From sequence record MH159197.1: a stretch of DNA of 64,000 bases; one strand, written 5' to 3'. The position numbers and the translations under genes were made by a program. This DNA comes from Staphylococcus phage VB_SavM_JYL01. The stretch's first letter is position 1. Each line of letters opens with the position of its first letter. Below are positions 1-60,057 of the stretch, piece after piece. The notes under the pieces were generated by a model that made no database searches, had not been told where the DNA came from, and was given only the letters and a program-made list of their open reading frames with translations.

Positions 1-24
1 GAAAAGTATAATGAATTAGTATTT

Positions 25-243
25 ATGAAAAGGTTTGTTATGGTTGGGGAACATGGTAATGGATATTTTAAACAGATGGTTTCTCTTATAATAAAAGAAG
101 AACCTCATATATGTTTAACTATAAATAAAGATAATATTAAAGTAGCTGATATCTTAAATGAACTAGGATTTATTAATGCAGGAGAAGTAATTGATAGAAC
201 AGGAAAGTATACTTATGAATTATACCAAGGAGGAAGAGCTTAA
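25..243 (+). CDS. hypothetical protein
   Basis: ORF track; codirectional tight packing, stop 1 nt before next start. Confidence 0.4.
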   Translation: MKRFVMVGEHGNGYFKQMVSLIIKEEPHICLTINKDNIKVADILNELGFINAGEVIDRTGKYTYELYQGGRA

Positions 244-1268
244 TGAAGTTTGTATTTTTTACAGATAGTCATTTTCATTTATTTACAAACTATGCAAAAC
301 CTGATGATGAATTTGTAAATGATAGATTTAAAGAGCAAATAGAAGCATTACAGAAAGTTTTTGATATTGCTAGGAAAGAAAAGGCTAATGTTATTTTCGG
401 AGGAGATTTATTCCACAAACGTAATTCAGTAGATACTAGAGTATATAACAAAGTATTTAGTACATTTGCTAAAAATAAAGATGTCCCTGTATTATTACTT
501 CGAGGTAATCATGATGCTACAACTAATTCATTATATACCGATTCAAGTATAGATACATTTGAGTATTTATCTAATGTAAGTGTAATAAAGTCATTAAATA
601 CAATTTTAAAAGATAATGTTAATATTGTATTTACAGCTTATGGAGATGAAACAGAAGAAATAAAAACCTACATTAACAGTAACTATGATAAAGATATGGT
701 TAATATACTAGTAGGTCATCTAGGTGTAGAAGGGTCATTAACTGGTAAAGGTTCCCATAGATTAGAAGGAGCCTTTGGATATCAGGACTTATTACCTGAT
801 AAATATGATTTTATTTTACTAGGTCATTATCATCGTAGACAATATTTCCAAAACCCAAACCATTTTTATGGGGGTTCATTAATGCAACAATCATTTTCTG
901 ATGAACAAGAAGCTAACGGTGTTCACCTAATAGATACAGAAAAGATGACCACAGAATTTATTCCAATTCATACACGTAGATTTATTACTATCCAGGGAGA
1001 AGATATACCTGAAAACTTTGAACAATTAATAGAGGAAGATAATTTTATTAGAGTTATTGGTACCTCAAACCATGCTAAAGTTTTAGAGATGGATGATAGT
1101 ATGAAGGATAAAAACGTTGAAGTTCAAATTAAAAAAGAATATACTGTAGAGAAACGTATAGATAGTGATGTATCTGATGACCCTCTAACAATTGCTAGCA
1201 CTTATGCTAAGCAATACTCACCTGAATCAGAACAAGAAATACTTGAATGTTTGAAGGAGGTTTTATAG
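243..1268 (+). CDS. sbcD: Mre11/SbcD-family DNA repair nuclease (calcineurin-like phosphoesterase)
   Basis: Motifs FFTDSHFH, GGDLFH, GNHD, GHYH in order typical of Mre11/SbcD; sits directly upstream of an SbcC-like gene. Confidence 0.85.
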   Translation: MKFVFFTDSHFHLFTNYAKPDDEFVNDRFKEQIEALQKVFDIARKEKANVIFGGDLFHKRNSVDTRVYNKVFSTFAKNKDVPVLLLRGNHDATTNSLYTDSSIDTFEYLSNVSVIKSLNTILKDNVNIVFTAYGDETEEIKTYINSNYDKDMVNILVGHLGVEGSLTGKGSHRLEGAFGYQDLLPDKYDFILLGHYHRRQYFQNPNHFYGGSLMQQSFSDEQEANGVHLIDTEKMTTEFIPIHTRRFITIQGEDIPENFEQLIEEDNFIRVIGTSNHAKVLEMDDSMKDKNVEVQIKKEYTVEKRIDSDVSDDPLTIASTYAKQYSPESEQEILECLKEVL

Positions 1269-1645
1269 TGAGAAAATATAAAGAATATCTAAACAAGTCA
1301 GATGAAGAAAATTTAGCAGAAGATTGGGAACGGATAAAAGAAGATTTATGGAAAGTGTTTAAAGATATGAAACCTAAAATTAATACATTAGACATCAGTA
1401 ATGTAGTAAGTAAAGACTTAGATAAAAGTAAGCCTATTTTACAATTTCAAGATTCAGACAGAGTAATAGAGAACATTTGTAATGTTGAAGGTTTAGAAGA
1501 TGGTTTATCTAAAATGAAAAAGATTTTTGACGATAGTAATTTTGAAAAACATTACTATAATAGAATTGTAGAACATGATGAATATTATTGGATTGATTAT
1601 GGTTCTCATCATTGTTTCTTTAGGGTTACGAAAGGAGATAAGTAA
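1268..1645 (+). CDS. hypothetical protein (probable GTG start coupled to sbcD stop)
   Basis: ORF track frame from 1247; AGGAGG at 1255-1260 is 7 nt upstream of GTG 1268, which overlaps the sbcD stop (taGTG); the ATG at 1247 lacks an SD. Confidence 0.45.
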   Translation: MRKYKEYLNKSDEENLAEDWERIKEDLWKVFKDMKPKINTLDISNVVSKDLDKSKPILQFQDSDRVIENICNVEGLEDGLSKMKKIFDDSNFEKHYYNRIVEHDEYYWIDYGSHHCFFRVTKGDK

Positions 1646-3564
1646 TGGTCGTATTTAAACAAGTAGAAGTTAATAATTTTTTAGCAATTAAAGAGGCTAC
1701 ACTAGAGTTAGATAATAGAGGTTTAATACTTATTGAAGGTGAAAATAAATCCAATGAGTCATTCCATTCAAATGGTTCCGGTAAGTCAACTTTAATATCT
1801 GCCATTACTTATGCTTTATATGGTAAAACTGAAAAAGGATTAAAAGCAGATGATGTAGTAAATAATATTGAGAAGAAAAATACATCTGTTAAACTTAAGT
1901 TTGATATTGGAGAAGATAGCTATTTAATTGAACGTTATCGTAAAGATAAAGAGAATAAGAACAAAGTAAAATTATTTGTTAATGATAAAGAAATTACAGG
2001 CTCAACAAATGATGTTACTGATAAACAGATACAGGATTTATTTGGTATTGAGTTTAATACGTATGTTAATGCTATCATGTATGGTCAAGGAGATATTCCT
2101 ATGTTCTCTCAAGCAACAGATAAAGGGAAAAAAGAAATTCTTGAATCTATTACCAAGACAGACGTATATAAACAAGCACAAGATGTAGCAAAAGAGAAAG
2201 TTAAAGAAGTAGAAGAACAACAGAATAATCTAAGACACGAAATAGATAAACTAGGGTATCAGTTATCTACAAAAGATGAATACTTTCAAAAGGAAATTGA
2301 ACAGTATAATCAATATAAAGAACAATTGGCTCAAATAGAAAATAGTAATAAGGAAAAAGATAAATTAAGGGAGCAAGAGGAGAAGCAAATAGAAGCTCAA
2401 ATAGAGCAATTAACTTCACAGATACCAACAATACCTGAAGATGAATTTAAGCACTCAGAGGAGTATAATAAAGCTTCTCAAAGCCTAGATTTACTTTCTA
2501 ATAAATTAACTGAACTAAATCAAGTATATGCAGAGTATAATACTAAAGAGCAGGTACTAAAATCTGAAATAGCTACATTAAGTAATAGCTTAAATCAATT
2601 AGATACAAATGACCATTGTCCGGTTTGTGGTTCTCCTATAGATAATTCTCATAAATTAAAAGAGCAGGAAAATATTAATAATCAGATTGAGAATAAGAAA
2701 CAAGAGATTACTAGTGTACTAGAAATTAAAGATACGTATAAAGAAGCTATTGATAAAGTAAATAATAAATCACAAGAAATTAAAGACAAAATGTCTCAAG
2801 AAGACCAACAAGAACGAGAGCACAACACTAGGATTAATAATATCATTCAAGAGGCTTCCAAGATTAAATCAGATATTAGTTCATTAGAGAATAATAAAAC
2901 TTATTTAAAAGTGAAATATCAACATCAATCTGTTCAAGGATTAGAAAGAGAAGAACCAAGTAAAAAGAAACATGAAGAAGATAAAAAAGAATTACAAGAA
3001 TCTATTGACAAACATGAAGAGAATGTAGTACAATTAGAAACTAAGAAAGGTAAGTATCAACAAGCTGTAGACGCTTTTAGTAATAAAGGTATACGTTCAG
3101 TAGTGTTAGACTTTATTACACCCTTCTTAAATGAGAAAGCCAATGAATATCTTCAAACTTTATCAGGTTCAGATATTGAAATAGAGTTTCAAACTCAAGT
3201 GAAGAATGCTAAAGGAGAACTAAAAGATAAGTTTGATGTTATTGTTAAAAATAGTAAAGGTGGAGGCTCATATAAATCAAACTCAGCAGGAGAACAAAAA
3301 CGTATTGACTTAGCAATTAGTTTTGCAATCCAGGATTTAATTATGAGTAAGGATGAGATATCTACAAATATTGCACTTTATGATGAATGTTTTGATGGGT
3401 TAGACACTATAGGGTGTGAAAATGTAATTAAGTTATTAAAGGATAGACTTAATACAGTAGGAACTATATTTGTAATTACCCATAATACAGAACTTAAACC
3501 ACTGTTTGAGCAAACAATTAAAATAGTAAAAGAAAATGGAGTATCAAAACTGGAGGAAAAATAA
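1645..3564 (+). CDS. sbcC: SbcC/Rad50-family SMC-like ATPase
   Basis: N-terminal Walker A GSGKST, long coiled-coil, central CPVCG zinc hook, C-terminal ABC signature SAGEQKRIDLA and Walker B YDECFDGLD. Confidence 0.85.
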   Translation: MVVFKQVEVNNFLAIKEATLELDNRGLILIEGENKSNESFHSNGSGKSTLISAITYALYGKTEKGLKADDVVNNIEKKNTSVKLKFDIGEDSYLIERYRKDKENKNKVKLFVNDKEITGSTNDVTDKQIQDLFGIEFNTYVNAIMYGQGDIPMFSQATDKGKKEILESITKTDVYKQAQDVAKEKVKEVEEQQNNLRHEIDKLGYQLSTKDEYFQKEIEQYNQYKEQLAQIENSNKEKDKLREQEEKQIEAQIEQLTSQIPTIPEDEFKHSEEYNKASQSLDLLSNKLTELNQVYAEYNTKEQVLKSEIATLSNSLNQLDTNDHCPVCGSPIDNSHKLKEQENINNQIENKKQEITSVLEIKDTYKEAIDKVNNKSQEIKDKMSQEDQQEREHNTRINNIIQEASKIKSDISSLENNKTYLKVKYQHQSVQGLEREEPSKKKHEEDKKELQESIDKHEENVVQLETKKGKYQQAVDAFSNKGIRSVVLDFITPFLNEKANEYLQTLSGSDIEIEFQTQVKNAKGELKDKFDVIVKNSKGGGSYKSNSAGEQKRIDLAISFAIQDLIMSKDEISTNIALYDECFDGLDTIGCENVIKLLKDRLNTVGTIFVITHNTELKPLFEQTIKIVKENGVSKLEEK

Positions 3565-4160
3565 TGAAATTAAAGATTTTAGATAGAGATAATGCAACAC
3601 TTAATGTGTTTCATCGTAATAAGGAGCACAAAACGATAGATAATGTACCTACTGCTAACTTAGTTGATTGGTATCCTTTAAGTAATGCTTATGAATATAA
3701 GTTAAGTAGAAATGGAGAGTATTTAGAATTAAAAAGGCTACGTTCTACCTTACCTTCTTCTTATGGCTTAGAGGATAATAACCAAGATATTATTAGAGAT
3801 AATAACCATAGATGTAAAATAGGATATTGGTATAATCCTGCAGTACGTAAAGATAATTTAAAGATTATTGAGAAAGCTAAACAATATGGTTTACCGGTTA
3901 TAACAGAAGAATATGATGCTAATATTGTAGAACAAGGGTTTAGAGACATTGGAGTTATATTCCAAAGTCTTAAAACTATTGTTGTTACTAGATACCTAGA
4001 AGGTAAAACAGAAGAAGAATTGAGAATTTTTAACATGAAATCGGAAGAGTCACAATTAAATGAAGCACTTAAAGAGAGTGATTTTTCGGTAGATTTAACT
4101 TATAGTGACCTAGGGCAGATTTATAATATGTTACTATTGATGAAAAAAATTAGTAAATAG
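3564..4160 (+). CDS. hypothetical protein
   Basis: ORF track; ATGA overlap with sbcC stop. Confidence 0.5.
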   Translation: MKLKILDRDNATLNVFHRNKEHKTIDNVPTANLVDWYPLSNAYEYKLSRNGEYLELKRLRSTLPSSYGLEDNNQDIIRDNNHRCKIGYWYNPAVRKDNLKIIEKAKQYGLPVITEEYDANIVEQGFRDIGVIFQSLKTIVVTRYLEGKTEEELRIFNMKSEESQLNEALKESDFSVDLTYSDLGQIYNMLLLMKKISK

Positions 4161-4174
4161 TAAGGAAGGATATT

Positions 4175-5242
4175 ATGAGGTTTGAAGACTTTTTAACCCA
4201 AGAATTAGGAGAACCAAAAGAAAATACTATAGGTGAACTAAGATACTGTTGTCCGTTTTGCGGAGAAAAAAGTTATAAGTTCTATGTTAAGCAAGCTTTA
4301 GACTCTAGTAATGGTCAGTATCACTGTAAAAAATGTGATGAATCAGGTAATCCTATTACATTTATGAAGACTTATTATAACATTACAGGTAAACAAGCTT
4401 TTGATTTATTAGAGTCTAAGAATATAGATATAGAGAGAGCCCCTTTACTTACAACTAATAATAAGGATTTAACAGAATCAGAGAAACTTATATTAATGCT
4501 TAGAGGCGTACACCAAGATAAAGGAAACACTAATCTTAAACCTCCTAGATTACCTGAGGGATATAAGTTATTAAAAGATAACTTAAATAATAAAGAGATT
4601 ATACCTTTTTTAAAATACTTAAAAGGCAGAGGTATAACTTTAGAACAAATAATTAATAATAATATAGGTTATGTTATTAATGGGTGCTTCTATAAAGTTG
4701 ATGGAGAATCAAAAGTCTCATTAAGGAATAGCATTATATTTTTTACGTATGATAATGATGGAAACTACCAGTACTGGAATACACGAAGTATAGAGAAGAA
4801 CCCTTATATTAAATCTATCAATGCCCCTGCTAAACAAGATGAAGTAGGAAGAAAAGATGTCATATTTAATTTAAATATAGCAAGAAAGAAAAAATTCTTA
4901 GTTATAACCGAGGGTGTCTTTGATGCTTTAACCTTTCATGAATATGGAGTAGCAACACTAGGTAAACAAGTAACAGAAAATCAAATAAAAAAAATAATTG
5001 ATTATGTTAGCATAGATACATCAATATATATTATGTTAGATACTGATGCGTTAGATAATAATATAGATTTAGCTTATAAGCTAAAAACGCACTTTAACAA
5101 AGTTTATTTTGTACCGCATGGTGATGAAGATGCAAATGATATGGGAACAAGGAAAGCTTTTGAGCTATTAAAACAGAACCGAGTACTAGTAACACCTGAA
5201 AGTATACAGAGTTACAAAATACAACAAAAACTTAAACTTTAG
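4175..5242 (+). CDS. DNA primase (zinc-binding domain + TOPRIM)
   Basis: CCPFCGEKS...HCKKCDESG zinc finger at N-terminus; ITEGVFDALT TOPRIM-like motif; replication-module context. Confidence 0.8.
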   Translation: MRFEDFLTQELGEPKENTIGELRYCCPFCGEKSYKFYVKQALDSSNGQYHCKKCDESGNPITFMKTYYNITGKQAFDLLESKNIDIERAPLLTTNNKDLTESEKLILMLRGVHQDKGNTNLKPPRLPEGYKLLKDNLNNKEIIPFLKYLKGRGITLEQIINNNIGYVINGCFYKVDGESKVSLRNSIIFFTYDNDGNYQYWNTRSIEKNPYIKSINAPAKQDEVGRKDVIFNLNIARKKKFLVITEGVFDALTFHEYGVATLGKQVTENQIKKIIDYVSIDTSIYIMLDTDALDNNIDLAYKLKTHFNKVYFVPHGDEDANDMGTRKAFELLKQNRVLVTPESIQSYKIQQKLKL

Positions 5243-5244
5243 GC

Positions 5245-5273
5245 TTGACCTTAGAGAAGTTTTATGTTATACT
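5245..5273 (+). promoter_or_regulatory. sigma70-like promoter TTGACC-17-TATACT
   Basis: ttgacc 5245-5250, 17-nt spacer, tatact 5268-5273. Confidence 0.55.
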
Positions 5274-5306
5274 AATAATTAAGTAATTAATAAAGGAGAA
5301 AAAATA

Positions 5307-5645
5307 ATGTCAAATAATAAAAAAGATATTTTAGAATTTGTAGATGAATACATTACAGCTTTAAGAGTTGGTAATGAGCAACGACAACATCAATTAGAAG
5401 AAATGGGTAAAGAAGAAACAGCAACATTAACAGATGTAGCTAAAGCTATTACTAACCTTATGTTAGGTGTTAATGAGCAAATGACAGACTTGGAATACAA
5501 CAATGAGTTAAATTTAAATATTTTAATTGACGCTTTATATAAAGCAGAACTTATTAATGAAGATGTACTAGATTACATCCAAGAATCAATTGATAAATCA
5601 CAAGAAGAACCTAAAAATGAAGAAGAAAAAGGAGAACAAGAATAA
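5307..5645 (+). CDS. hypothetical acidic protein
   Basis: ORF track; promoter 5245-5273 and SD aaaggag upstream. Confidence 0.55.
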   Translation: MSNNKKDILEFVDEYITALRVGNEQRQHQLEEMGKEETATLTDVAKAITNLMLGVNEQMTDLEYNNELNLNILIDALYKAELINEDVLDYIQESIDKSQEEPKNEEEKGEQE

Positions 5646-6097
5646 TGGAAAAAAATATTAGCACACACACAAAAGGTATTAGTCAAGCAGACATGGAGAA
5701 ATGGATTGAAGCTGTAGTCCAAGGAACTGTTGATGGTAAACAAGTTGATGAAAAAACAGCTAAACAACTAGATAGAATTGGTTCACGCAGTGTTTCTTTA
5801 GAAGAAGCAACTCGTATTGCTAAAGTCATTAATGCTGTTACAGTTCAAGAGATGTCAGGAGATTTTAATGACGCATTTAACGCAATTGACTTAATGATGA
5901 TTGTTATGGAAGATGAGTTAGGAGTAACTCAAGAACAAGTTGGAAAAGCTAAAGATAAGTTAAATGAGAAACGAGAAGCTTATTTAAAAGAGAAGCAAGA
6001 AGAATTACGTCAAAAACAACAAGAAGAGACACAAAAAGAAACTGAATCTGACAGCAATGAAAAAGTAATTCAGTTGAAGAAAAATGACGAACAGTAA
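5645..6097 (+). CDS. hypothetical protein
   Basis: ORF track; ATGG overlap with previous stop. Confidence 0.5.
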   Translation: MEKNISTHTKGISQADMEKWIEAVVQGTVDGKQVDEKTAKQLDRIGSRSVSLEEATRIAKVINAVTVQEMSGDFNDAFNAIDLMMIVMEDELGVTQEQVGKAKDKLNEKREAYLKEKQEELRQKQQEETQKETESDSNEKVIQLKKNDEQ

Positions 6098-6692
6098 GAA
6101 AAAAGGAGATACATTCGAACGTAAAATAGCTAAAGAATTAACTGCTTGGTGGGGATACCAATTTAATAGGTCTCCTCAATCAGGTGGTGCCTCTTGGGGT
6201 AAAGATAATAATGCTGTCGGAGACATAGTAGTACCTCAGGAAGCTAATTTTCCTTTAGTAGTAGAATGTAAACATAGAGAAGAATGGACTATAGATAACG
6301 TTCTTTTAAACAATAGAGAACCACATACATGGTGGGAACAAGTAATTAATGATAGTAGCAAGGTGAATAAGACACCTTGCTTAATATTTACTAGAAACAG
6401 AGCTCAGAGTTACGTTGCTTTACCTTATGATGAGAAAGTATATGAGGACTTAAGAAATAATGAATATCCTGTTATGAGAACAGATTTTATTATTGATAAT
6501 ATTAGAAAAGATAAATTTTTTTATGATGTCCTTATAACTACCATGAATGGGTTGACCTCATTTACACCTTCTTATATTATATCTTGCTACGACAAAAAAG
6601 ATATAAAACCATACAAGAAGGTTGAGTCTAATTTATCTGAGGTAAGTAAGCATGAAGATGAATTGATTAATGACCTTCTTAATGATATATAA
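6084..6692 (+). CDS. Hjc-like Holliday-junction resolvase (PD-(D/E)xK fold)
   Basis: N-terminal KKGDTFERKIAKEL plus GDIVVP...VVECKHRE resembles the D..E.K catalytic core of the archaeal-Hjc/phage resolvase family. Confidence 0.55.
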   Translation: MTNSKKKGDTFERKIAKELTAWWGYQFNRSPQSGGASWGKDNNAVGDIVVPQEANFPLVVECKHREEWTIDNVLLNNREPHTWWEQVINDSSKVNKTPCLIFTRNRAQSYVALPYDEKVYEDLRNNEYPVMRTDFIIDNIRKDKFFYDVLITTMNGLTSFTPSYIISCYDKKDIKPYKKVESNLSEVSKHEDELINDLLNDI

Positions 6693-6709
6693 GGAAGGGT
6701 AAGATAGGT

Positions 6710-7102
6710 ATGACAAGTAAAGAAAGACCATTAATTGTATATTTTTCAGGTACAGGGCAGACAGAAAGACTAGTAAACAAAATTAATATTAATAACTCAT
6801 TTGAAACGTTTAGGGTTAAGAGTGGAAAAGAGAAAATAAATAAACCTTTTATACTAATAACACCGACTTATATGAAGGGTGCAATACCTAAACAAATAGA
6901 AAGATTCCTAGAAATTAATGGGAGCCCTAAGGAAGTCATTGGTACAGGAAATAAACAATGGGGCTCTAATTTCTGTGGAGCAAGTAAAAAGATTTCAGAG
7001 ATGTTTAAGATTCCTTTAATTGCTAAAGTAGAGCAATCAGGACACTTTAACGAGATACAACCAATATTAGAACACTTTAGTAATAAATATAAAGTAGCGT
7101 AA
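6710..7102 (+). CDS. nrdI: NrdI flavodoxin-like protein
   Basis: ~130 aa protein beginning PLIVYFSGTGQTERL immediately upstream of nrdE-nrdF (class Ib RNR operon order). Confidence 0.8.
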   Translation: MTSKERPLIVYFSGTGQTERLVNKININNSFETFRVKSGKEKINKPFILITPTYMKGAIPKQIERFLEINGSPKEVIGTGNKQWGSNFCGASKKISEMFKIPLIAKVEQSGHFNEIQPILEHFSNKYKVA

Positions 7103-7116
7103 AGGATGAGAGATAT

Positions 7117-9231
7117 ATGGCAACATATGGAAAATGGATTGAGTTAAATAATGAAATAACTCAATTAGATGACAATGGAAAAAATAAACTCTATAAAGAC
7201 CAAGAAGCTTTAGATGAGTATTTAAAATATATTGAAGATAATACAAGAAAGTTTAATAATGAAGTAGAAAGAATTAGAGTATTGACAAAAGAAGGAACAT
7301 ATGATAAAATATTTGATAAAGTTCCTGATACTATTATTGATGAAATGACTAAGCTAGCTTACAGTTTTAATTTTAAATTTCCTAGTTTTATGGCAGGGCA
7401 AAAGTTTTATGAGTCTTACGCATCAAAACAGTATGACGAGAATAAAAAACCTATTTTTGTTGAAGACTATGAGCAACATAACGTTCGAGTAGCTTTATAT
7501 TTATTTCAAAATGATTATGTAAAGGCTAGAGAGTTATTAGTACAACTTATGGAGCAAACATTTCAACCATCTACACCTACGTATAATAACTCAGGGCAAG
7601 CTAATAGAGGTGAACTAAGTTCATGTTATCTATTTGTAGTAGATGATTCAATTGAGTCCTTAAATTTTGTTGAGGATAGTGTAGCTAATGCTAGTTCTAA
7701 TGGTGGCGGAGTTGCAATTGATTTAACTAGAATTAGACCGAAAGGTGCTCCAGTACGTAATAGACCTAATTCAAGTAAAGGTGTTATTGCTTTTGCTAAA
7801 GCTATTGAACATAAAGTAAGTATATATGACCAAGGTGGGGTTCGACAAGGTAGTGGTGCAGTCTACCTTAATATATTCCATAATGATATTTTGGATTTAT
7901 TAAGTTCTAAGAAAATAAATGCTAGTGAATCTGTTAGACTTGATAAACTATCTATAGGTGTTACAATACCTAATAAGTTTATGGAATTAGTTAAAGAAGG
8001 TAAACCTTTCTACACGTTTGACACTTACGATATTAACAAAGTATATGGTAAATATTTAGATGAATTAAACATTGATGAGTGGTACGAAGAATTATTAAAT
8101 AATGATAAAATTGGTAAAGTAAAACATGATGCTAGAGAAGTCATGACAGATATTGCTAAAACACAATTAGAATCAGGTTACCCTTATGTATTTTATATTG
8201 ATAATGCTAATGACAATCACCCTCTTAAAAATCTAGGTAAAGTTAAAATGAGTAACTTATGTACAGAAATTTCACAATTACAAGAGGTATCAGAAATTTA
8301 TCCATATTCCTATAGTAATCAGAATGTTATTAATAGAGATGTTGTTTGTACATTAGGTTCACTTAACTTAGTTAATGTGGTTGAAAAAGGTTTATTAAAT
8401 GAGTCCGTAGATATTGGTACAAGAGCACTAACAAAAGTTACTGATATTATGGATTTACCATATCTACCTAGTGTTCAAAAAGCAAATGATGACATTAGAG
8501 CTATCGGTTTAGGTTCAATGAATTTACATGGACTTTTAGCTAAGAATATGATTAGTTATGGTTCTAGGGAAGCTCTAGACCTAGTAAACAGTTTATATAG
8601 TGCTATTAACTTCCAGTCTATTAAGACATCTATGTTAATGGCTAAAGAAACAGGAAAACCATTTAAAGGGTTTGAAAAGTCTGATTATGCTACAGGTGAA
8701 TACTTTGTAAGATATATTAGAGAGTCTAACCAACCTAAAACAGATAAAGCTAAGAAAGTCCTAAGCAAGGTCTATATTCCAACACAAGATGATTGGGATG
8801 AATTAGCTAAAGCAGTTAAAGTATATGGACTGTATAATGGGTATAGAAAAGCAGAAGCACCTACTCAATCTATATCATATGTACAGAATGCTACAAGCTC
8901 AATTATGCCTGTACCTAGTGCTATAGAGAACAGACAATATGGAGACATGGAAACATACTATCCAATGCCTTATTTAAGTCCTATAACTCAGTTTTTCTAT
9001 GAAGGAGAAACAGCTTATAAGATTGATAATAAACGTATTATTAATACAAGTGCAGTAGTGCAAAAACATACAGACCAAGCAGTATCTACTATACTTTATG
9101 TAGAATCAGAAATACCGACTAATAAGTTAGTATCATTATATTACTATGCTTGGGAACAAGGATTAAAATCATTATATTATACACGTTCACGTAAACTTTC
9201 TGTTATTGAATGTGAAACATGTTCGGTTTAG
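7117..9231 (+). CDS. nrdE: Ribonucleotide reductase class Ib large subunit
   Basis: 704 aa; active-site NLCTEI, C-terminal redox cysteines CETCSV; followed by R2 subunit. Confidence 0.9.
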   Translation: MATYGKWIELNNEITQLDDNGKNKLYKDQEALDEYLKYIEDNTRKFNNEVERIRVLTKEGTYDKIFDKVPDTIIDEMTKLAYSFNFKFPSFMAGQKFYESYASKQYDENKKPIFVEDYEQHNVRVALYLFQNDYVKARELLVQLMEQTFQPSTPTYNNSGQANRGELSSCYLFVVDDSIESLNFVEDSVANASSNGGGVAIDLTRIRPKGAPVRNRPNSSKGVIAFAKAIEHKVSIYDQGGVRQGSGAVYLNIFHNDILDLLSSKKINASESVRLDKLSIGVTIPNKFMELVKEGKPFYTFDTYDINKVYGKYLDELNIDEWYEELLNNDKIGKVKHDAREVMTDIAKTQLESGYPYVFYIDNANDNHPLKNLGKVKMSNLCTEISQLQEVSEIYPYSYSNQNVINRDVVCTLGSLNLVNVVEKGLLNESVDIGTRALTKVTDIMDLPYLPSVQKANDDIRAIGLGSMNLHGLLAKNMISYGSREALDLVNSLYSAINFQSIKTSMLMAKETGKPFKGFEKSDYATGEYFVRYIRESNQPKTDKAKKVLSKVYIPTQDDWDELAKAVKVYGLYNGYRKAEAPTQSISYVQNATSSIMPVPSAIENRQYGDMETYYPMPYLSPITQFFYEGETAYKIDNKRIINTSAVVQKHTDQAVSTILYVESEIPTNKLVSLYYYAWEQGLKSLYYTRSRKLSVIECETCSV

Positions 9232-52109: not shown

Positions 52110-52120
52110 GGAGGGATAGG

Positions 52121-53258: not shown

Positions 53259-53357
53259 AAATAGGGGTTGCAATACCCCTTAAGATGTAGTAATATAATA
53301 GATGTAAGGGATAGCAACACACCTTAAAAAACTTTTTAAAAAAGTTAAAGAAAAGTG

Positions 53358-53386
53358 TTGACACCTTACAAGATACATGTTAATAT
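53358..53386 (+). promoter_or_regulatory. promoter TTGACA-17-TAATAT (TGT-extended)
   Basis: Same -10 context tgttaatatt as the promoters at 54671 and 56591. Confidence 0.6.
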
Positions 53387-53463
53387 TAGTATAGAAGTTA
53401 AGACAAGCCACATAGCAAATAACGAAATTAAATAAAAAAATTATAGAATAGGATTTGATTATT

Positions 53464-53751: not shown

Positions 53752-53800
53752 AACCGCTTCTGAATTAAATAAAAAAATTATATAAAAAGGGTATGATATT

Positions 53801-53992
53801 ATGAAATTTAAAATAGAAAAAAATAACAGTGATATAAAAACTTTATGGAATTTAGCTAAAAATGGATATATGAGTTATCAAACTGTACACAATATATTTA
53901 AAAATGAATCAGATGAATTTATTATATTTAACAGTAAACAAACTTATAATAAATTTATGGAATTAAGATATAATAGAAGTGCAATTCAATAG
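53801..53992 (+). CDS. hypothetical protein
   Basis: ORF track; terminator 54012-54045 follows. Confidence 0.5.
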   Translation: MKFKIEKNNSDIKTLWNLAKNGYMSYQTVHNIFKNESDEFIIFNSKQTYNKFMELRYNRSAIQ

Positions 53993-54011
53993 TATAAAAA
54001 AGTTATATAAT

Positions 54012-54045
54012 TCCCTAGGATTAAATTCCTAGGGATTTTTATTTG
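54012..54045 (+). terminator. intrinsic terminator
   Basis: tccctagga-ttaaat-tcctaggga + ttttt. Confidence 0.6.
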
Positions 54046-54099
54046 TTTTAATTTATATAAAAAAATTATTTAATAAATAAATTAGTGTAAAATTGACTG

Positions 54100-54129
54100 T
54101 TGACAAGAATATATTTTTTATGGTATAAT
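54100..54129 (+). promoter_or_regulatory. promoter TTGACA-(17/18)-TATAAT heading a non-coding cassette
   Basis: ttgaca 54100-54105; ggtataatg. Confidence 0.55.
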
Positions 54130-54508
54130 GAAGTGAAGACCTTTTTTAGTATAAAAAAATTATTATATAAAAAAATTATATAAAAAAGTTTAGTTCCGGT
54201 CTTTCTCCCCACCTTGTCATATTTATAGTGGAAGGGTTAGGCGGGTTACCACTGTTTTACTTTCTATATATAGTATACTATGAATAATGGTAATTGTCAA
54301 CACCTTTCAGAAACTTTTTTTACTTTATTTTATTATTATATAAAAAAATTATACATATTTTAGGGCTCCACTTCCATTATATAATAATTCGGTCTTAATG
54401 TCAATACTTTTATTCAAAAAAGTTTTTTAAATTAGTTTCAACAAATCTATTGACTTATGTTTATTTCTATAGTAATATATAGTTATACCAACAAGGGAGG
54501 CAATACAA

Positions 54509-54667
54509 ATGCTAAAATTTAAATGGAAAAACAAAACAATCAAATCAACTCAAAAAACGGATAACATTCTTTTACTTCTTATAGGTGGTTTAGTTGCAAC
54601 AGTCACACCTAAACTTGTAAACTGGTTTTTACTACTACAAGATAATATAAATATTTTTTTAAGATAA
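54509..54667 (+). CDS. 52-aa membrane micro-protein, not in ORF track
   Basis: aagggagg 8 nt upstream of ATG 54509; promoter ttgact...taatat upstream. Confidence 0.45.
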   Translation: MLKFKWKNKTIKSTQKTDNILLLLIGGLVATVTPKLVNWFLLLQDNINIFLR

Positions 54668-54670
54668 CTA

Positions 54671-54699
54671 TTGACAACTTAGAAACAACGTGTTAATAT
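54671..54699 (+). promoter_or_regulatory. promoter TTGACA-17-TAATAT; transcript begins with a GGAAGCGG-ttga-CCGCTTCC hairpin
   Basis: ttgaca 54671-54676; taatat 54694-54699; hairpin 54716-54735. Confidence 0.6.
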
Positions 54700-54765
54700 T
54701 AAGATACAAGGTAAGGGAAGCGGTTGACCGCTTCCGACCTAAATAAAAAAAGTTTAAAAAAACTA

Positions 54766-54794
54766 TTGACAGTCACTTGAAACCATGATATTAT
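54766..54794 (+). promoter_or_regulatory. second tandem promoter TTGACA-17-TATTAT
   Basis: ttgaca 54766-54771. Confidence 0.5.
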
Positions 54795-54833
54795 TAAGAT
54801 AACAAAAAACAAACAGAAAAGGAATTGATTATA

Positions 54834-55157
54834 ATGAAATTTATCAAAACTATCGAAAACTTATTAGAAAAAGCAGAAAACAAAGGGCAAGCAATTTTAA
54901 ACGGTCGTTACTTTGATGGGTATAGCAAAGGTGAGCTTGAGGAAAAATATGCAATTGAAATTGATGGCAACAAATTGATTATGCGTCACTGGGGTACACA
55001 AACAATTGAGATTGATTTAAGCATAAATGAGATTGTTTCATATTACGGTGAAAGCAATTCAGACCGTGACAGTTTAAACACACTTGTATATTGCTTAGGA
55101 ATTGCGCCAAACTTTAGATACTTACCAAGCAAAAACTTATTCATTTACGAAAATTAA
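54834..55157 (+). CDS. hypothetical protein
   Basis: Tandem promoters 54671-54699 and 54766-54794; leader GGAATTGATTATAATG. Confidence 0.55.
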   Translation: MKFIKTIENLLEKAENKGQAILNGRYFDGYSKGELEEKYAIEIDGNKLIMRHWGTQTIEIDLSINEIVSYYGESNSDRDSLNTLVYCLGIAPNFRYLPSKNLFIYEN

Positions 55158-55256
55158 TTAAATAAAGGGCTTGACTTCCAAGCCCTACCATGTTATTATT
55201 AAATTGTAAGGTAATCAAGCACAACGACAAAATAAACTGAAAAGGGATTGATGAAA

Positions 55257-55763
55257 ATGACAAATAATAAGGATTTTAATAAAAATTTCTTAAGACTACT
55301 AAAAGTTAAAAATGTAAATGACAAAAGGGTGCAAGGTTTCATAAACAAGCATGACATTAAACTTAAAGACAAAGAAGAAAGCTCACAAGGATATGTTAAC
55401 GTATTATATAAGGGTTATGACTTTGTAATATCAAAAGACTATGCAGGTCAAACGGCGTTATATGTTAACATGCGTAATTTAGGGGTTGACTACAAACATT
55501 TTAAACATTTAGATTTTAATAATATTGTTCAAGCGTTAGACAGAAAAAATAATAATCGTGTTGAATGTAAGGAAACAAAAACACAACAATATAAAGAATT
55601 TAAACACCGTCAAAAGACAGAAAAAGAAATGTTAACATACTATGAAAAGGATATCGAAAAGCTAAAAGAAGAACTGGAACGAACACAAAAAATCTACAAT
55701 GATAAAATAAAGAAAATAGAAAATTACGATAAAAAAATATCTAGACTAAAAAAATCAAAATAA
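55257..55763 (+). CDS. hypothetical Lys-rich coiled-coil protein
   Basis: Leader GGGATTGATGAAAATG; start could also be 55251. Confidence 0.5.
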   Translation: MTNNKDFNKNFLRLLKVKNVNDKRVQGFINKHDIKLKDKEESSQGYVNVLYKGYDFVISKDYAGQTALYVNMRNLGVDYKHFKHLDFNNIVQALDRKNNNRVECKETKTQQYKEFKHRQKTEKEMLTYYEKDIEKLKEELERTQKIYNDKIKKIENYDKKISRLKKSK

Positions 55764-55832
55764 GGCTTGACACTTTCAAGCCCTCATGATATACTTAGTA
55801 TAACAAATCAAAAAGAAAAGGAATTGATGAAA

Positions 55833-56213
55833 ATGTTCAAATTACAAAATAAAGTGGAAATTATCGTACCTAAGGAAGATAACAACGGCGTTGAGATTGC
55901 AGACAAACGTATTAAAGAATATGTAAATAGCATCACAATGGAAGCGGGTGGTTGTACTATTACAGAAATCAAAGGGCAATGGTACTCAGAAGATGAAAAA
56001 CGTATAATGGAAGATAACAACTTAAATCTTGAGTGGTACTACATGCAAGACAGTGCCAAATTCATGACAGTTGAATTAAAAGGCATTGTAAGACGTTTAA
56101 TTGAAGTTTACGGACAAGAAGCAATAAGCATTAAAGTTAACGGCACATTGTACATTGTAGACCAATCAGACATTGAAGAATTACACACAACATTATTAAA
56201 TATCATGAAATAA
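55833..56213 (+). CDS. hypothetical protein
   Basis: Leader GGAATTGATGAAAATG; start could also be 55827; terminator 56226-56266 follows. Confidence 0.5.
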   Translation: MFKLQNKVEIIVPKEDNNGVEIADKRIKEYVNSITMEAGGCTITEIKGQWYSEDEKRIMEDNNLNLEWYYMQDSAKFMTVELKGIVRRLIEVYGQEAISIKVNGTLYIVDQSDIEELHTTLLNIMK

Positions 56214-56225
56214 AAAATTTATATA

Positions 56226-56266
56226 AACCGCTTCGGATTAAATTCTTGAAGTGGTTATTTTCTTTT
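56226..56266 (+). terminator. intrinsic terminator (stem built on a CCGCTTC element)
   Basis: aaccgcttc-(13 nt)-gaagtggtt + attttcttttaaat. Confidence 0.55.
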
Positions 56267-56590
56267 AAATTAGTGCTTGACAAATGTACTAAAAAATGAG
56301 ATAATGAAGTGAACGCATTTTTTAGTATAAAAATAATATTATATAAAAAAATTATATAAATGAATTTATTTCAGGTCTTTCCCGTAACCCCTCTTGGGCT
56401 ACCCTGGTATCTCTACAATTATTATTATACTATAGGTCATGAAGATTGTCAATAACTTTCTTCAAAATAATTTATTTAAAAAAGTTTCATAAATCTATTG
56501 ACTTACTATTAATTATGGTGTAATATATAGATATAAGGTTAAGGAAGCGGAACACCTAAAAAAGAAATTAAAAAAACTTTTAAAAAGGTG

Positions 56591-56619
56591 TTGACAAACT
56601 TCAAACCACATGTTAATAT
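56591..56619 (+). promoter_or_regulatory. promoter TTGACA-17-TAATAT
   Basis: ttgaca 56591-56596; taatat 56614-56619. Confidence 0.6.
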
Positions 56620-56655
56620 TAAGATAACAAATAAAACAAAAAGGAATTGATAATT

Positions 56656-56877
56656 ATGAACAGATTAGAAATAATAAAAGACACGGCAATGGAATACATC
56701 ATTATGATGGATAACGGAGTTATGGACGGACAATTGACACAAGAAGAATACAACGAAGCGGTTAGCTTTGAAAAGGTTTACGATTACACTTTATCAGAAG
56801 CAAATCAAGAATGTAAATTCTTAGGCGGTAAAATTTTAACTTTCCTAGTACATGAAGCAATTGAAGAATACGCATAA
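56656..56877 (+). CDS. hypothetical protein
   Basis: Promoter 56591-56619; leader GGAATTGATAATTATG. Confidence 0.55.
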   Translation: MNRLEIIKDTAMEYIIMMDNGVMDGQLTQEEYNEAVSFEKVYDYTLSEANQECKFLGGKILTFLVHEAIEEYA

Positions 56878-56958
56878 AAAAACTTAATCAAAGGGGTTGA
56901 CATTCAACCCCTTACCATGTTAATATTAATATATACCAAATGAGAGGAATTGATAATT

Positions 56959-57096
56959 ATGAGATACGAAATCGTAACATTAGTTAATGGAGAATTATTC
57001 ATGTTTGCAACATTTAAGAAAGCAGAGGCAGAAAATAAATATCAAGAATGGTGTGACTTGTACGGTCAAGAAAATGTAAGCATGGAAAAAAATTAA
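56959..57096 (+). CDS. 45-aa protein, not in ORF track
   Basis: Promoter gttgacattcaacccctt...taatat; leader GGAATTGATAATTATG; stop 57094-57096. Confidence 0.45.
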   Translation: MRYEIVTLVNGELFMFATFKKAEAENKYQEWCDLYGQENVSMEKN

Positions 57097-57166
57097 AATA
57101 AGGGGTTGACACTTAACCCCTTAGATGTTATTATTAATATATACTAAAGAAAAGGAAATGATAAAA

Positions 57167-57403
57167 ATGAAATTATTAAACCAAGAAAATGAAATCGTAA
57201 AAGAAATGGTAACTTTTAGAGACGTAAAACAAGCCCTAATTTGGGAATACATCGACCACATAGATAATAACATCCTAAACAATGAAATTCATGACACAGA
57301 AGCGGTTGTGGTTACTTCTGAGACTCTACAATCAATCAAATTTGCAGACACTATGGAAGACCTGCAGGAATACATTGCAGATATCAATTGGAAATTAGTT
57401 TAA
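57167..57403 (+). CDS. hypothetical protein
   Basis: Promoter gttgacacttaacccctt...tattat; leader GGAAATGATAAAAATG. Confidence 0.5.
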   Translation: MKLLNQENEIVKEMVTFRDVKQALIWEYIDHIDNNILNNEIHDTEAVVVTSETLQSIKFADTMEDLQEYIADINWKLV

Positions 57404-57497
57404 AAAAAGTTTTAAATAACTGTTGACACCTTAGCAAATAGATGGTAATATAAGAGTATAAAGAAAAACAAAAAAAAACGAAAAGGATTTGATTATA

Positions 57498-57842
57498 ATG
57501 ACAAACTTACTAAACACTATTGAGATGGATTTTGAATACTATGGAGTACAATTTGAAAATGGATGGAAACACAATGCCTACACTGTAGAGCTAACACATA
57601 ATGGAGTTACCGAAGAATTTGACTGGAAACAAGGAATAGGAATTCACGAAGAGCCTGAACTAGAAAGCATCTTAGAAAGCTTAATGCTAGATATTCATTA
57701 CTATGAAGAAGATATTTATTCAATGTATGAGGACGAAGAACAGGCAGAAAAAATAATTGAGAAGTTAGAAGAACAAACTAAAAAGGTAAATAAACTATTT
57801 ACAGATGAGGAACAAGCAGACCTAGTTGAATACTTTGAATAG
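57498..57842 (+). CDS. hypothetical acidic protein
   Basis: Promoter ttgacacc...ggtaatat; leader GGATTTGATTATAATG; palindrome hairpin 57867-57890 after the stop. Confidence 0.55.
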   Translation: MTNLLNTIEMDFEYYGVQFENGWKHNAYTVELTHNGVTEEFDWKQGIGIHEEPELESILESLMLDIHYYEEDIYSMYEDEEQAEKIIEKLEEQTKKVNKLFTDEEQADLVEYFE

Positions 57843-57916
57843 TATCAGGAAACACACAGAGACCCACAGAAGCGGATTAATCCGCTTCTAATATAATTAA
57901 TCAGGAGATGTTAAAG

Positions 57917-58081
57917 ATGACAATTAAAGAGGTTATAAGCCAATTAGAATTAGTAGAAAATAAAGAACTTGAATTGTACGTATGCGACAAGGAAAATAAT
58001 AACATTTCAATTAATGATATTATTTTGTTCGATAGTGAAGCAGAGCACACAGAAAACAACCCACTAGGGATTAATTATTAG
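57917..58081 (+). CDS. 54-aa protein, not in ORF track
   Basis: Leader GGAGATGTTAAAGATG; stop TAG 58079-58081. Confidence 0.4.
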   Translation: MTIKEVISQLELVENKELELYVCDKENNNISINDIILFDSEAEHTENNPLGINY

Positions 58082-58093
58082 GAGATGTTGAAC

Positions 58094-58267
58094 ATGAACA
58101 CAAGAAGGGTAAACAAAGCGTTAAACGAAGCAGTTAGATTATTAGACAAGCAAATAGCAGACACACAGAAAACAATGCAGGAGTTAAATAAACAACTAGA
58201 ACAACAGATAAAAGCTAAGCAGGAGCTAATGACATTAGTTGATGCTATGACTGGTGATGATGAGTAA
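58094..58267 (+). CDS. small coiled-coil protein
   Basis: Leader GGAGATGTTGAACATG; ORF-track frame from 58085. Confidence 0.45.
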   Translation: MNTRRVNKALNEAVRLLDKQIADTQKTMQELNKQLEQQIKAKQELMTLVDAMTGDDE

Positions 58268-58536
58268 TGAACGTTAGAGAGGTTCATGATGTCGTTAAGA
58301 GTGCAAAGAGCAAACTCCTGCAGGAGCAGAATAATATTAATAATGTAATGATATATGAATACATCACAGAAGAGCTTCACAGACGCACACAGAGAAGCGG
58401 AACAATACAGATGAACAATAACACCGCTTCATATAGTAATGGCTCATATGGTAGCTTAGAAGAGCTTAGAGAAGCTTATGACCTCTCTTCTCTATCTACT
58501 GATGAGATTAAAGAACTACTTGAAACATTTGTTTAA
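58267..58536 (+). CDS. hypothetical protein
   Basis: ORF track; ATGA overlap. Confidence 0.5.
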   Translation: MNVREVHDVVKSAKSKLLQEQNNINNVMIYEYITEELHRRTQRSGTIQMNNNTASYSNGSYGSLEELREAYDLSSLSTDEIKELLETFV

Positions 58537-58620
58537 ATTATTTTATCAAAACGCTTTACAATCTTTTAGTTTGTATGATATAATGAACTTAACAAATTAA
58601 AAGAAAAGGAAATGATGAAC

Positions 58621-58842
58621 ATGAGAGACTTACAAGAGAGAAAAAGAGAATTAAAAACATTACTATTTAACTTAGCCATAGAGAAGAATAGAGCAACGGA
58701 TGAGCAGTTAAGAGAAGTATTAGAACAATCACATCAAGAAGTGATGTATCAATTAAATAAAGTTAGAAAAGAAATTGAAATTTTAGTTGAAGAAAAAGAA
58801 AGAGAATTTTGGAATGATTTCGATTTTAATGGATTAGATTAA
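58621..58842 (+). CDS. hypothetical coiled-coil protein
   Basis: Leader GGAAATGATGAACATG; terminator 58842-58870 follows. Confidence 0.5.
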   Translation: MRDLQERKRELKTLLFNLAIEKNRATDEQLREVLEQSHQEVMYQLNKVRKEIEILVEEKEREFWNDFDFNGLD

Positions 58843-58870
58843 GAGGGAATAAAATCCCTCTTTTATTTTT
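58842..58870 (+). terminator. intrinsic terminator ending the rightward small-gene block
   Basis: agaggga-ataaaa-tccctct + tttattttt. Confidence 0.65.
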
Positions 58871-59004
58871 ATCCTATTATATAATTTTTTTATATTATAC
58901 GGGGGCAGGGGTAAAATGCCACTCAATGGGGGTGGGTCTATATACCCCTACGGTCTACCCAGGTACTTATTTTTTGGGGAAAATTATGAAAATAAATATT
59001 TAAA

Positions 59005-59126
59005 AGTCAACACATAAAATATAGAAAGTAAGTCAACATCCCTTATAATAAGTCAACATTATAACCTTACTTGGTAAGTCAACAATTTATAGTACAAATA
59101 TAAAGCCTCTAAATATAAAGTCAACA
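59005..59126 (+). repeat. five direct copies of AGTCAACA (iteron-like) in the convergent intergenic region
   Basis: Copies at 59005, 59031, 59051, 59077, 59119. Confidence 0.8.
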
Positions 59127-59129
59127 TAT

Positions 59130-59160
59130 ATAAAATAAGAAGAGAGGTATATCCTCTCCT
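59130..59160 (-). terminator. minus-strand intrinsic terminator ending the leftward operon
   Basis: gagagg-tatat-cctctc hairpin; on the minus strand it is followed by tcttatttta. Confidence 0.55.
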
Positions 59161-59167
59161 CTCTTAA

Positions 59168-59458
59168 CTAGATAAGTACGATTCTATTATTTAGTTCCTG
59201 TTCTATTCTATTTAAATGCTCCCAAACCTCAATCCAGTTTACTCTTGAATCATCATAATAAAGGTGGAAATCTTGAGGGTTTTCTAAATATGCTTCTAGT
59301 TCATCATAGTATAGAACATCAAAAGCTGTGTCATCAAGACCTATTTGAATCTTTAGTATATCTCTATATCCTAATTGTTTATTACCGCAATAAGCTGTAT
59401 CTTCTAACCGCTTCTCTAGTTTATTAAATAGTGTTTGTATACCTTGTAGTTCATTCAT
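59168..59458 (-). CDS. hypothetical protein (first gene of the leftward-transcribed arm)
   Basis: ORF track; minus-strand terminator at 59130-59160 just past its stop. Confidence 0.55.
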   Translation of the reverse strand: MNELQGIQTLFNKLEKRLEDTAYCGNKQLGYRDILKIQIGLDDTAFDVLYYDELEAYLENPQDFHLYYDDSRVNWIEVWEHLNRIEQELNNRIVLI

Positions 59459-59547
59459 AATGTATGACCTCCTAATTGATTATATACTTAGTATAAAGGA
59501 TAGGTGTTAGAATGTCAACCTTTATATATAAAAAAAGAGAAAGAATA

Positions 59548-59796
59548 TTATTCTTCCTCTAAGGTATTACTAATAACTTCTAATTCATGAATAGTAATCA
59601 TATCCATTCTATCGAATCCTCTTGGGTCTCCTTTAATGAACTCTTGTTCTCCTCTATGGGTTATACTTTCTTTGTATCCTTCTTCTTTAATACGTTTAAT
59701 TAAGTTCTCCTTATTTGTGTATATCTCATCTTCCCTGAAATGGAAATTATCTTCATAAGGTTCACAATTATCGTGTTCTACTTGATATAGTTTCAT
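59548..59796 (-). CDS. hypothetical protein
   Basis: ORF track. Confidence 0.5.
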   Translation of the reverse strand: MKLYQVEHDNCEPYEDNFHFREDEIYTNKENLIKRIKEEGYKESITHRGEQEFIKGDPRGFDRMDMITIHELEVISNTLEEE

Positions 59797-59811
59797 ATTA
59801 GTTATCCTCCT

Positions 59812-60057
59812 TTACTCTCTATAATAATCATATATTTCTAAGTAAGGTGAGAATGGTGAGTCACCTCTAGTATTAATAATAACTTCTCCCTCTTTGTTAC
59901 TTAACTCTATAAGCTCTTCTAAGCTATTAATTTCTACACACCAACGTTCTATAGTAAATGGATTACCTTTTTGGTCTACACGTTCTAATTCCTTTATATA
60001 GGCACCTTCTATAGGCTTTTTATTAATTGTGCTTGTTCTATCTATAAAAAATTCCAT
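59812..60057 (-). CDS. hypothetical protein
   Basis: ORF track. Confidence 0.5.
   Translation of the reverse strand: MEFFIDRTSTINKKPIEGAYIKELERVDQKGNPFTIERWCVEINSLEELIELSNKEGEVIINTRGDSPFSPYLEIYDYYRE

Follow-up and report, generated by a model that had tools for sequence, protein, structure and literature searches.

A 9-bp direct-repeat motif at a near-constant distance outside the right terminal-repeat end of Staphylococcus, Listeria and Enterococcus phages: a putative part of the end-formation signal

Introduction

In the SPO1-like phages (Herelleviridae), concatemers are cut at two fixed positions that lie thousands of bases from each other, and a long terminal repeat (LTR) is duplicated; both processes are poorly understood. 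To this family belong phages of Staphylococcus, Listeria and Enterococcus that find use in therapy and food safety. Here, we describe an element next to one of these sites in a stretch of 64,000 nucleotides (the window) from Staphylococcus phage VB_SavM_JYL01 (sequence record MH159197.1). The element is an array of five direct copies of the 9-mer AAGTCAACA in the intergenic interval 58843-59167; by homology to annotated ends, this interval is the right-hand junction of the Kayvirus LTR, and the array lies just outside the repeat.

In phage lambda, the cos site consists of the nick site cosN, the terminase-binding repeats R3, R2 and R1 of cosB, and cosQ, and cosB starts the next chromosome. The Kayvirus junction resembles cos in its partly symmetric cut site, a spacer of a few helical turns and short repeats on the not-yet-packaged side. 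It differs in the start of the virion DNA, which in Kayvirus is not beside the array but at the left LTR border, about 10.5 kb upstream, and in the ends, which for Kayvirus are assumed to be blunt with a long direct repeat instead of cohesive. Lambda cosB and SPP1 pac carry repeated terminase sites that add avidity, an effect we also propose for the extra AAGTCAACA copies, although the Kayvirus motifs do not lie on the DNA packaged from the adjacent cut. The junction is also similar to that of T7 and T3, where one repeat copy stands between genomes and needs duplication, and where short repeats lie just outside the repeat. Moreover, the inverted border sites of Kayvirus would put nicks on opposite strands, as the T7 model needs. 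Kayvirus departs from T7 and T3 in the length of the repeat, about 10 kb (vs 160-230 bp), in a junction that lacks a phage RNA polymerase promoter, and in motifs that bear no relation to theirs. T5 is comparable in that its LTR, with pre-early host-takeover genes, has non-coding DNA rich in repeats at its inner edge.

For Kayvirus itself, the border inverted repeats TAAGTACCTGGG and CCCAGGTACTTA were reportedly described by Lobocka et al. in 2012, to whom a citing paper credits them. In K-like phages, CCCAGGTACTTA and its inverse TAAGTACCTGGG are markers that divide the LTR from unique DNA (PMC6022877). A 2026 cryo-electron microscopy (cryo-EM) study of phage 812 DNA found that the tip of the genome, which lies in the neck and tail channel, carries G/C tracts, a notable feature in a genome of more than 70% AT (PMC12886913). 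In phage 812, packaging begins with the left end, and the right end is the first to exit the capsid (PMC12886913). Because the right end exits first, the first-entering inner edge of the repeat is the left border, and the array is therefore badly placed to act as an injection stop.

Results

A 9-mer array stands at a near-constant distance from the repeat end

We found exactly five copies of AAGTCAACA in the window, all on the plus strand and separated from start to start by 26, 20, 26 and 42 nt:

59004-59012, plus strand: copy 1, found in all five genera checked
59030-59038, plus strand: copy 2, exact match
59050-59058, plus strand: copy 3, exact match
59076-59084, plus strand: copy 4, which becomes AAGTCAATA in A3R and 812h1
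59118-59126, plus strand: copy 5, exact match

Dinucleotide-preserving shuffles of the sequence gave a mean of 0.97 and a maximum of 4 exact matches, as against the five observed, so the five direct repeats called from sequence alone in a first-pass annotation of this DNA hold up. A logo of 46 distinct instances showed a sharp 9-bp core and uninformative flanks; because the instances were chosen by core match, only the flatness of the flanks is informative here. To our knowledge, AAGTCAACA resembles none of the DnaA box, parS, LexA, dif, Ter and Chi sites.

To locate the motif in other phages, each genome was anchored on its annotated terminal-repeat end and the first exact AAGTCAACA beyond it was recorded, together with the number of exact and near-exact copies within the array:

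VB_SavM_JYL01 (the window), A3R, 812h1, fGPyoSau01 and Staph1N: first AAGTCAACA at +45; 4-5 copies
184DA (border by homology): first AAGTCAACA at +44; 4 copies
Silviavirus Romulus (border by homology): first AAGTCAACA at +45; 5 copies
Listeria phage A511 (repeat 1..3125): first AAGTCAACA at +45; 1 copy
Enterococcus phage EF1TV, Kochikohdavirus (repeat 1..1911): first AAGTCAACA at +46; 2 copies, 20 nt apart
Enterococcus phage UTI-EfS3, Schiekvirus (repeat 1..1911): first AAGTCAACA at +46; 2 copies, 13 nt apart

Copy 1 stands at +44 to +46 in five genera, a short repeated motif at a defined distance from the predicted cut, and BT3 carries a one-mismatch AAGTCAACA at +46. The orientation is constant, while the copy number varies from 1 to 5 across lineages. 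From base composition, we estimated that an exact 9-mer would fall within a given span of 3 nt by chance with a probability of about 2×10^-5 for one lineage, indicating that the agreement in offset reflects conservation. The DNA around the motif is too diverged to align between the Staphylococcus, Listeria and Enterococcus phages. The repeats are kept in Kayvirus and also beyond the genus, contrary to the refuting outcome named in the first-pass annotation, that they would be missing or unconserved in relatives. A pattern scan of IMG/VR recovered the same junction sequence in P100, EFLK1 and two metagenomic relatives, with three other hits due to chance; a scan for the Kayvirus cut site plus the motif returned two contigs, both chance matches in coding-looking DNA.

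The sequence on either side of the repeat end follows a similar pattern. The last 62 bp of the repeat have a GC content of 0.55-0.63 in every lineage checked, and the spacer between the repeat end and copy 1 has a GC content of 0.18-0.34 across the lineages with AAGTCAACA. In the Listeria and Enterococcus phages, the outer flank opens with nGGGTAC, a T-run and GG; the Kayvirus sequence (CAGGTAC...) comes near to this start, and Silviavirus departs from it.

SPO1 resembles Kayvirus in ending its 13,185-bp terminal redundancy with a GC-tract block, GGGGTACCCCGGAGGGGGTATAGACCCCTCCCCCC, and in having five direct repeats of the CATTCAAAACTA type, which begin at +49 and are spaced by 32, 22, 33 and 28 nt. 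It differs in its core, which is CATTCAAAACTA and not AAGTCAACA, in its GC-rich spacer (0.61) and in the sequence of the cut site. The record AF031901 stops at the same base as the SPO1 repeat end. The SPO1 GC-tract block and repeats occupy record positions 13123-13364 (524-765 of locus L144); the repeats read CyTyCATTCAAAACTAy and are kept in CampHawk, with 98% identity over the aligned stretch. We also observed that the start of the SPO1 record, GTCCCG, recurs one base past the repeat end, as A/GTCCCG read in ...AGG/AGTCCCG (here and below, a slash marks the border). In SPO1-like phages of B. cereus, primer walking gave termini such as GGGTCTACCC-3′, close to Kayvirus GGTCTACC (PMC5418689).

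Most parts of this junction are already known, namely the border inverted repeat, the G/C tip tracts, a phage K minus-strand RNA and the 9-mers in GenBank record AY842851. The family-wide occurrence of AAGTCAACA at a fixed offset outside the repeat appears to be undescribed. The literature on Kayvirus borders deals with the 12-mers and does not cover the array at +45 or its presence in other subfamilies. Our literature search returned no end-recognition element beyond these 12-mers, although a prior description in Lobocka 2012, Klumpp 2008 or Stewart 2009 is possible; a search for conserved sequences at Herelleviridae repeat ends found none, and a full-text search with the motif strings gave primer noise only.

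The borders of the repeat in the window

Four repeat ends, those of A3R (LTR 1..8306), 812h1 (1..8432), Staph1N (1..8455) and fGPyoSau01 (1..8422, from PhageTerm), all align to 58959/58960 of the window, between treU and bofL. The junction reads ...GGTCTACC/CAGGTACTTA, with 58959 as the last LTR base, and the 12-bp border repeat CCCAGGTACTTA is found exactly at 58958-58969, its sole match in the window. The first-pass annotation had expected a physical boundary of the LTR in this interval, and homology to these four annotated or PhageTerm ends bears this out to the base. The left border was located as follows:

48486-48505, no strand: left LTR border ...CTAGAGCCTG/GGAAAACTTTT, from BLAST of A3R bases 1-457 and the 812h1 R-LTR junction

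The left cut falls at 48495/48496 and reads ...CTAGAGCCTG/GGAAAAC, with 48496 as the first LTR base. From this position and the right end at 58959, the LTR of the window spans 48496-58959 by homology and is therefore about 10.46 kb long. The window left border, CTAGAGCCTGGG, fits the canonical TAAGTACCTGGG at 8 of 12 positions, and the core CCTG/GG is present in all eight left borders compared, the window genome and one Silviavirus among them. Virion DNA begins at the left LTR border (GGAAAAC...) and not at CAGGTAC.

Several repeats lie near the left border. Outside it, a single TGTTGACTA, which matches 8 of the 9 positions of the inverted repeat motif, occurs at 48395-48403 on the minus strand (1194-1202 of locus L004). 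It sits inside a conserved element, GGAGTATGTTGACTAATRAGGAAG, at a distance from the cut that ranges from about 40 to 91 nt between phages, is missing in PM22 and Silviavirus LSA2311, and has decayed to TATTGACTA in PG-2021_10; it can also be read as the start (ATG-TTG-ACT) of a mini-ORF (open reading frame) of 8-9 codons with a ribosome-binding site. Two tandem 19-nt units, AATCAAGTAAAACCAATAA, lie just outside the border at 48431-48469, whereas a variable 35-bp tandem repeat with TAAGTACCT has been reported at this place in phages 812 and K (PMC6445280). Just inside the LTR, about five TAATCTA-type repeats occur at 48613-48720, within a non-coding leader of about 480 bp.

Layout of the interval

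No ORF of at least 40 aa was found between 58843 and 59167 (325 bp), and the flanking ORFs, 58612-58842 (plus) and 59168-59458 (minus), converge on it. The features other than the array are:

58841-58872, plus strand: terminator hairpin AAGAGGGAATAAAATCCCTCTT (hairpin 58841-58862) with a T-tail, from a terminator scan; it ends a treU-like gene
58873-58923, no strand: near-invariant inner block, an A/T-rich stretch followed by CGGGGGCAGGGGTAAAATGCCACT, from alignments
58924-58954, no strand: variable GC-rich half of the terminal block, with G-runs in the window genome and C-runs in BT3, PSU5, EW1 and 184DA
58955-58969, no strand: right LTR border, CTACC followed by the cut and CAGGTACTTA, from alignment to annotated and PhageTerm LTR ends
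58960-59003, no strand: A/T-rich spacer of 44 nt, CAGGTACTTATTTTTTGGGGAAAA..., with a length of 43-45 nt across genera
59137-59163, minus strand: terminator-like hairpin, from a terminator scan; it ends the leftward gene 59168-59458 and forms the outer edge of the conserved module

These results agree with the first-pass annotation in its claim of an ORF-free, convergent interval between two terminators, and the hairpins lie near the positions it had assigned. Its G-rich block is real as well, but had been placed at 58910-58973; the correct run is 58900-58963 (CGGGGGCAGGGGTAAAATGCCACTCAATGGGGGTGGGTCTATATACCCCTACGGTCTACC), which starts about 10 nt further left. Local GC content reaches 0.50 in the block, as against about 0.28 in the surroundings.

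The cumulative GC skew has a maximum, and no minimum, at the interval. This bears on the possibility, also raised in the first-pass annotation, that a replication origin lies beside the LTR, with the AAGTCAACA copies as its iterons. Several direct repeats in A/T-rich non-coding DNA would suit an origin, as would a motif conserved across subfamilies like the replication genes. However, a skew maximum and convergent transcription do not fit an origin, and the copies are not the regularly phased repeats of about 17-22 bp that iterons are: the spacing is irregular in the window (26/20/26/42) and depends on the genus elsewhere (31/29, 20, 13, or a single copy). Moreover, the core is 9 bp with uninformative flanks, an origin has no need of a fixed offset from the cut, and Listeria A511 has one copy only. 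We therefore consider an origin unlikely.

The junction module is conserved among Staphylococcus phages

The identity of the region is 100% with vB_SauM-SDQ and about 80-95% with some 240 Kayvirus-like records. The segment 58842-59147 is kept at about 93-95% identity in many Kayviruses whose two flanking genes differ, and homology to many Kayviruses ends at about 59147. On these alignments, the junction module is a conserved island among variable genes. Among 11 aligned Kayvirus junctions, the sequence from the terminator tail through CGGGGGnAGGGGTAAAATGCCACT is almost invariant and the next ~30 bp are variable, with G-runs in the window genome, C-rich sequence throughout in 184DA, and C-rich sequence only just before the border in BT3, PSU5 and EW1. 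The GC block ends in CTACC/CAGG in all 11. A BLAST search with a 42-mer of the inner block matched 287 Staphylococcus phage records and one named Silviavirus, and the G-tract half of this inner block is the same in Kayvirus and Silviavirus save for one variable base between two G-runs. Similarly, the Silviavirus phages Romulus, LSA2311 and SAP_01, whose DNA is otherwise too diverged to align, retain a TATATTATACGGGGGCAGGGGTAAAATGCCACT block, a related CTACC/TAAGG site and three to five AAGTCAACA-like copies.

Within the Kayvirus arrays, the 9-bp AAGTCAACA cores are nearly invariant and the spacers between copies differ. The arrays hold four or five copies, with two distinct four-copy arrangements, a pattern that fits unit deletions between repeats. 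In Romulus, the array (683-987 of locus L006) is split by an insertion of about 265 bp bounded by a 43-nt direct duplication, TAGTGAGTAATATTATATAACTTATTATTAAAAGTCAACATTA, which indicates a repeat-mediated rearrangement inside the array; the SAP_01 array has no insertion of the Romulus type. Such variation raises the possibility that the copies have no dedicated function and are only substrates for illegitimate or homologous recombination. Indeed, GenBank record AY842851 (phage 812b) labels four copies of TGTTGACTT, the minus-strand reading of the repeat, as 'possible recombination site', and the change between four and five copies, the two four-copy forms and the duplication-flanked Romulus insertion are what such a role would give. 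Neutral repeats, however, would not be expected to keep the 9-mer, its orientation and the +44 to +46 offset across three host groups, and recombination among the copies comes as a by-product of there being repeats. We thus give little credence to recombination as the sole role of the array.

The GC-rich block and its possible structures

The terminal G:C tracts seen in phage 812 (PMC12886913) are the same sequence block as the GC-rich block of the window; in that study, no part in a cutting signal was assigned to the block, nor were the repeats outside the end discussed. In our alignments, tract richness is kept on either strand, and one 24-mer is invariant save for a single base. The first-pass annotation had pointed to a G-quadruplex-like arrangement, and the window genome does have four G-runs (GGGGG, GGGG, GGGGG, GGG). 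However, the loops are 2, 16 and 1 nt, with the 16-nt loop in the centre, and the four runs are not conserved: runs 3 and 4 become C-runs in 184DA, run 3 is broken in PSU5 (GTGGTGTGGG), and BT3 and EW1 keep runs 3 and 4 with a C-rich last segment before the border. A structured RNA or a single-stranded DNA hairpin was weighed alongside. A single-stranded RNA fold of -27.8 kcal/mol is possible, but the plus strand folds no better than its shuffles (z = -0.83), and a consensus fold of eight G-blocks gave no supporting covariation (1 of 14 pairs, with a positive covariation term). A G-quadruplex, structured RNA or hairpin is therefore highly improbable as the function of the block. Because what is conserved is G:C-tract richness on either strand together with the invariant 24-mer, a property of duplex DNA, as proposed for phage 812 (PMC12886913), or a protein site fits better.

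Transcription signals at the interval

The minus-strand reading of the repeat, TGTTGACTT, contains TTGACT, and the copies could thus be taken as -35 boxes of leftward promoters that make a small C-rich RNA across the border to a bidirectional terminator. Copies 1 and 5 have CATAAT and TATATT, respectively, 16 nt downstream. In addition, stranded RNA sequencing of phage K identified a putative minus-strand small RNA, snc004, at 8370-8665 between gp021 and gp022, and this is the same intergenic region as the interval in the window. The minus strand also folds better than its shuffles (z = -3.45), over a stretch that takes in the terminator hairpin.

Against this, a -10 hexamer accompanies only two of the five copies, both with a 16-nt spacer, whereas 32 other good promoter matches in the window have spacers of 17 nt (30 matches) or 18 nt (2) and none of 16 nt. 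TTGACA is the -35 word in 28 of 34 matches, while all five array copies have TTGACT. A3R has lost the -10 of copy 5 (TCTATT), and copy 1 has no -10 in A511 and the Enterococcus phages despite the kept 9-mer. The phage K tables list no promoter between gp021 and gp022 and give the 8370 hairpin, the homologue of the hairpin at 58841-58872, as a terminator for both gp021 (plus) and gp022 (minus); because no promoter is listed and this terminator is assigned to gp022, the gp022 unit seems to extend at its 3′ end into what was called snc004. A role of the copies in making snc004 is accordingly improbable, and a cluster of sigma-A promoters as the main function was rejected on the spacer, the -35 word, the unconserved -10 and the phage K tables. 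The first-pass annotation had considered the repeats not to be spaced as promoters: this is right for the three copies without a -10, while the other two do have a -10-like hexamer at 16 nt and fail as promoters on the above grounds. An Rfam scan of 58000-60000 at permissive E-values gave only weak, terminator-like chance matches, and those within 58843-59167 were far below threshold.

Discussion

We consider that the AAGTCAACA array has a somewhat better than even chance of being the protein-binding outer arm of a signal for cutting or nicking the right LTR border. We infer from the sequence that AAGTCAACA would bind a protein, what kind of protein this could be, and a part for it in cutting. 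In the concatemer, a single LTR would stand between unique regions, and packaging would begin at the left border and proceed rightward, such that the motor would encounter the terminator, the GC block, the cut site, the 44-nt spacer and the array in this order. Because packaging goes left end first and right end last, the array would be just ahead of the motor at the right-end cut. The GC block at 58900-58959 would be the last ~60 bp of packaged DNA, with its tip in the neck and tail channel; it would be the A-philic tip reported from cryo-EM, and the invariant 24-mer in it may be another site of protein binding.

The cut or strand nick would be made at CTACC/CAGGTAC. The AAGTCAACA copies would be bound by a conserved phage protein, for which terminase, a recognition subunit or a border nickase are candidates, with copy 1 lying 44-46 nt, or some four helical turns, beyond the cut. 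Once bound, this protein would place or set off the sequence-specific cleavage by which packaging terminates at the right border, or alternatively the nick that primes LTR duplication, and extra copies would raise occupancy or avidity. In a variant of this mechanism, one and the same enzyme would nick both borders after TAAGTACCTG, acting on the top strand at the left and on the bottom strand at the right. Synthesis by strand displacement from these nicks would then duplicate the LTR, as in the classical T7 model, and the right-hand nick would have the array on its primer side. This variant fits because the two border sites are inverted.

A family-wide role for AAGTCAACA as a piece of the Herelleviridae end-formation signal is plausible from the sequence comparisons. 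More tentatively, and with less confidence than in the reading for the window, we propose that the Herelleviridae share an ancient, two-part right-end signal, in which the GC-tract block would act as a brake or an A-form tip and a protein bound to AAGTCAACA about 45 bp out would set the LTR end position as a ruler or roadblock for the motor, or as a loader for a nickase.

Several points weigh against the cutting-signal reading. The binding and cutting roles of AAGTCAACA are putative, and the right border of the window genome was itself placed by homology. A classical cosB or pac array sits on the DNA that is packaged next, and virions do not start at CAGGTAC. Among the left borders compared, none has a matching array, only one inverted copy with an 8/9 match at a variable distance. 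Silviavirus lacks the CCCAGG core at its predicted site. Moreover, a read-start study of three Kayviruses reported that the left end was sharp and that the right ends were random (PMC3896407). This result conflicts with the annotated and PhageTerm right ends, and may reflect a poorly ligating end, for instance owing to a GC-tract tip.

For mutagenesis and protein pull-down, a 9-mer whose distance to the repeat end is fixed in three subfamilies is a concrete target. Annotators could use the motif and its offset to locate the right repeat end from sequence alone, and engineers of therapeutic phages would do well to leave this intergenic stretch undisturbed. If the two-part signal is true, the SPO1-like phages would have their first defined cis-element for end formation, and LTR cutting and duplication would become directly testable; if the repeats are dispensable, the finding shrinks to a correct re-identification of a known LTR border.

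Chi sequences within the repeat

We further observed that GAAGCGG, the Chi sequence of S. aureus RexAB (PMC11442139), is concentrated in the LTR. The window has 28 copies, as against 0.78 expected, of which 27 lie inside the LTR (48624-58430; 16 on the plus and 11 on the minus strand) and one at 59408, with none in the upstream 48.5 kb. The density ratio is about 138-fold, and the next commonest permutation of the same bases occurs five times in the LTR. In the other Kayvirus loci compared, every GAAGCGG falls inside the LTR part, and two Silviavirus loci have none. Because the same repeat sits at both genome ends, the presence of both orientations would suit protection of both ends from RexAB; no paper pairing 'Chi site' with Kayvirus was among the results listed by our literature search. 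An inverted pair, CCGCTTC-N26-GAAGCGG at 48897-48936, flanks the -35 (TTGACA at 48919) of the first strong LTR promoter. Further close inverted pairs occur at 53734/53754, 54717/54728, 57869/57882 and 58394/58424, and these resemble hairpin stems or operators.

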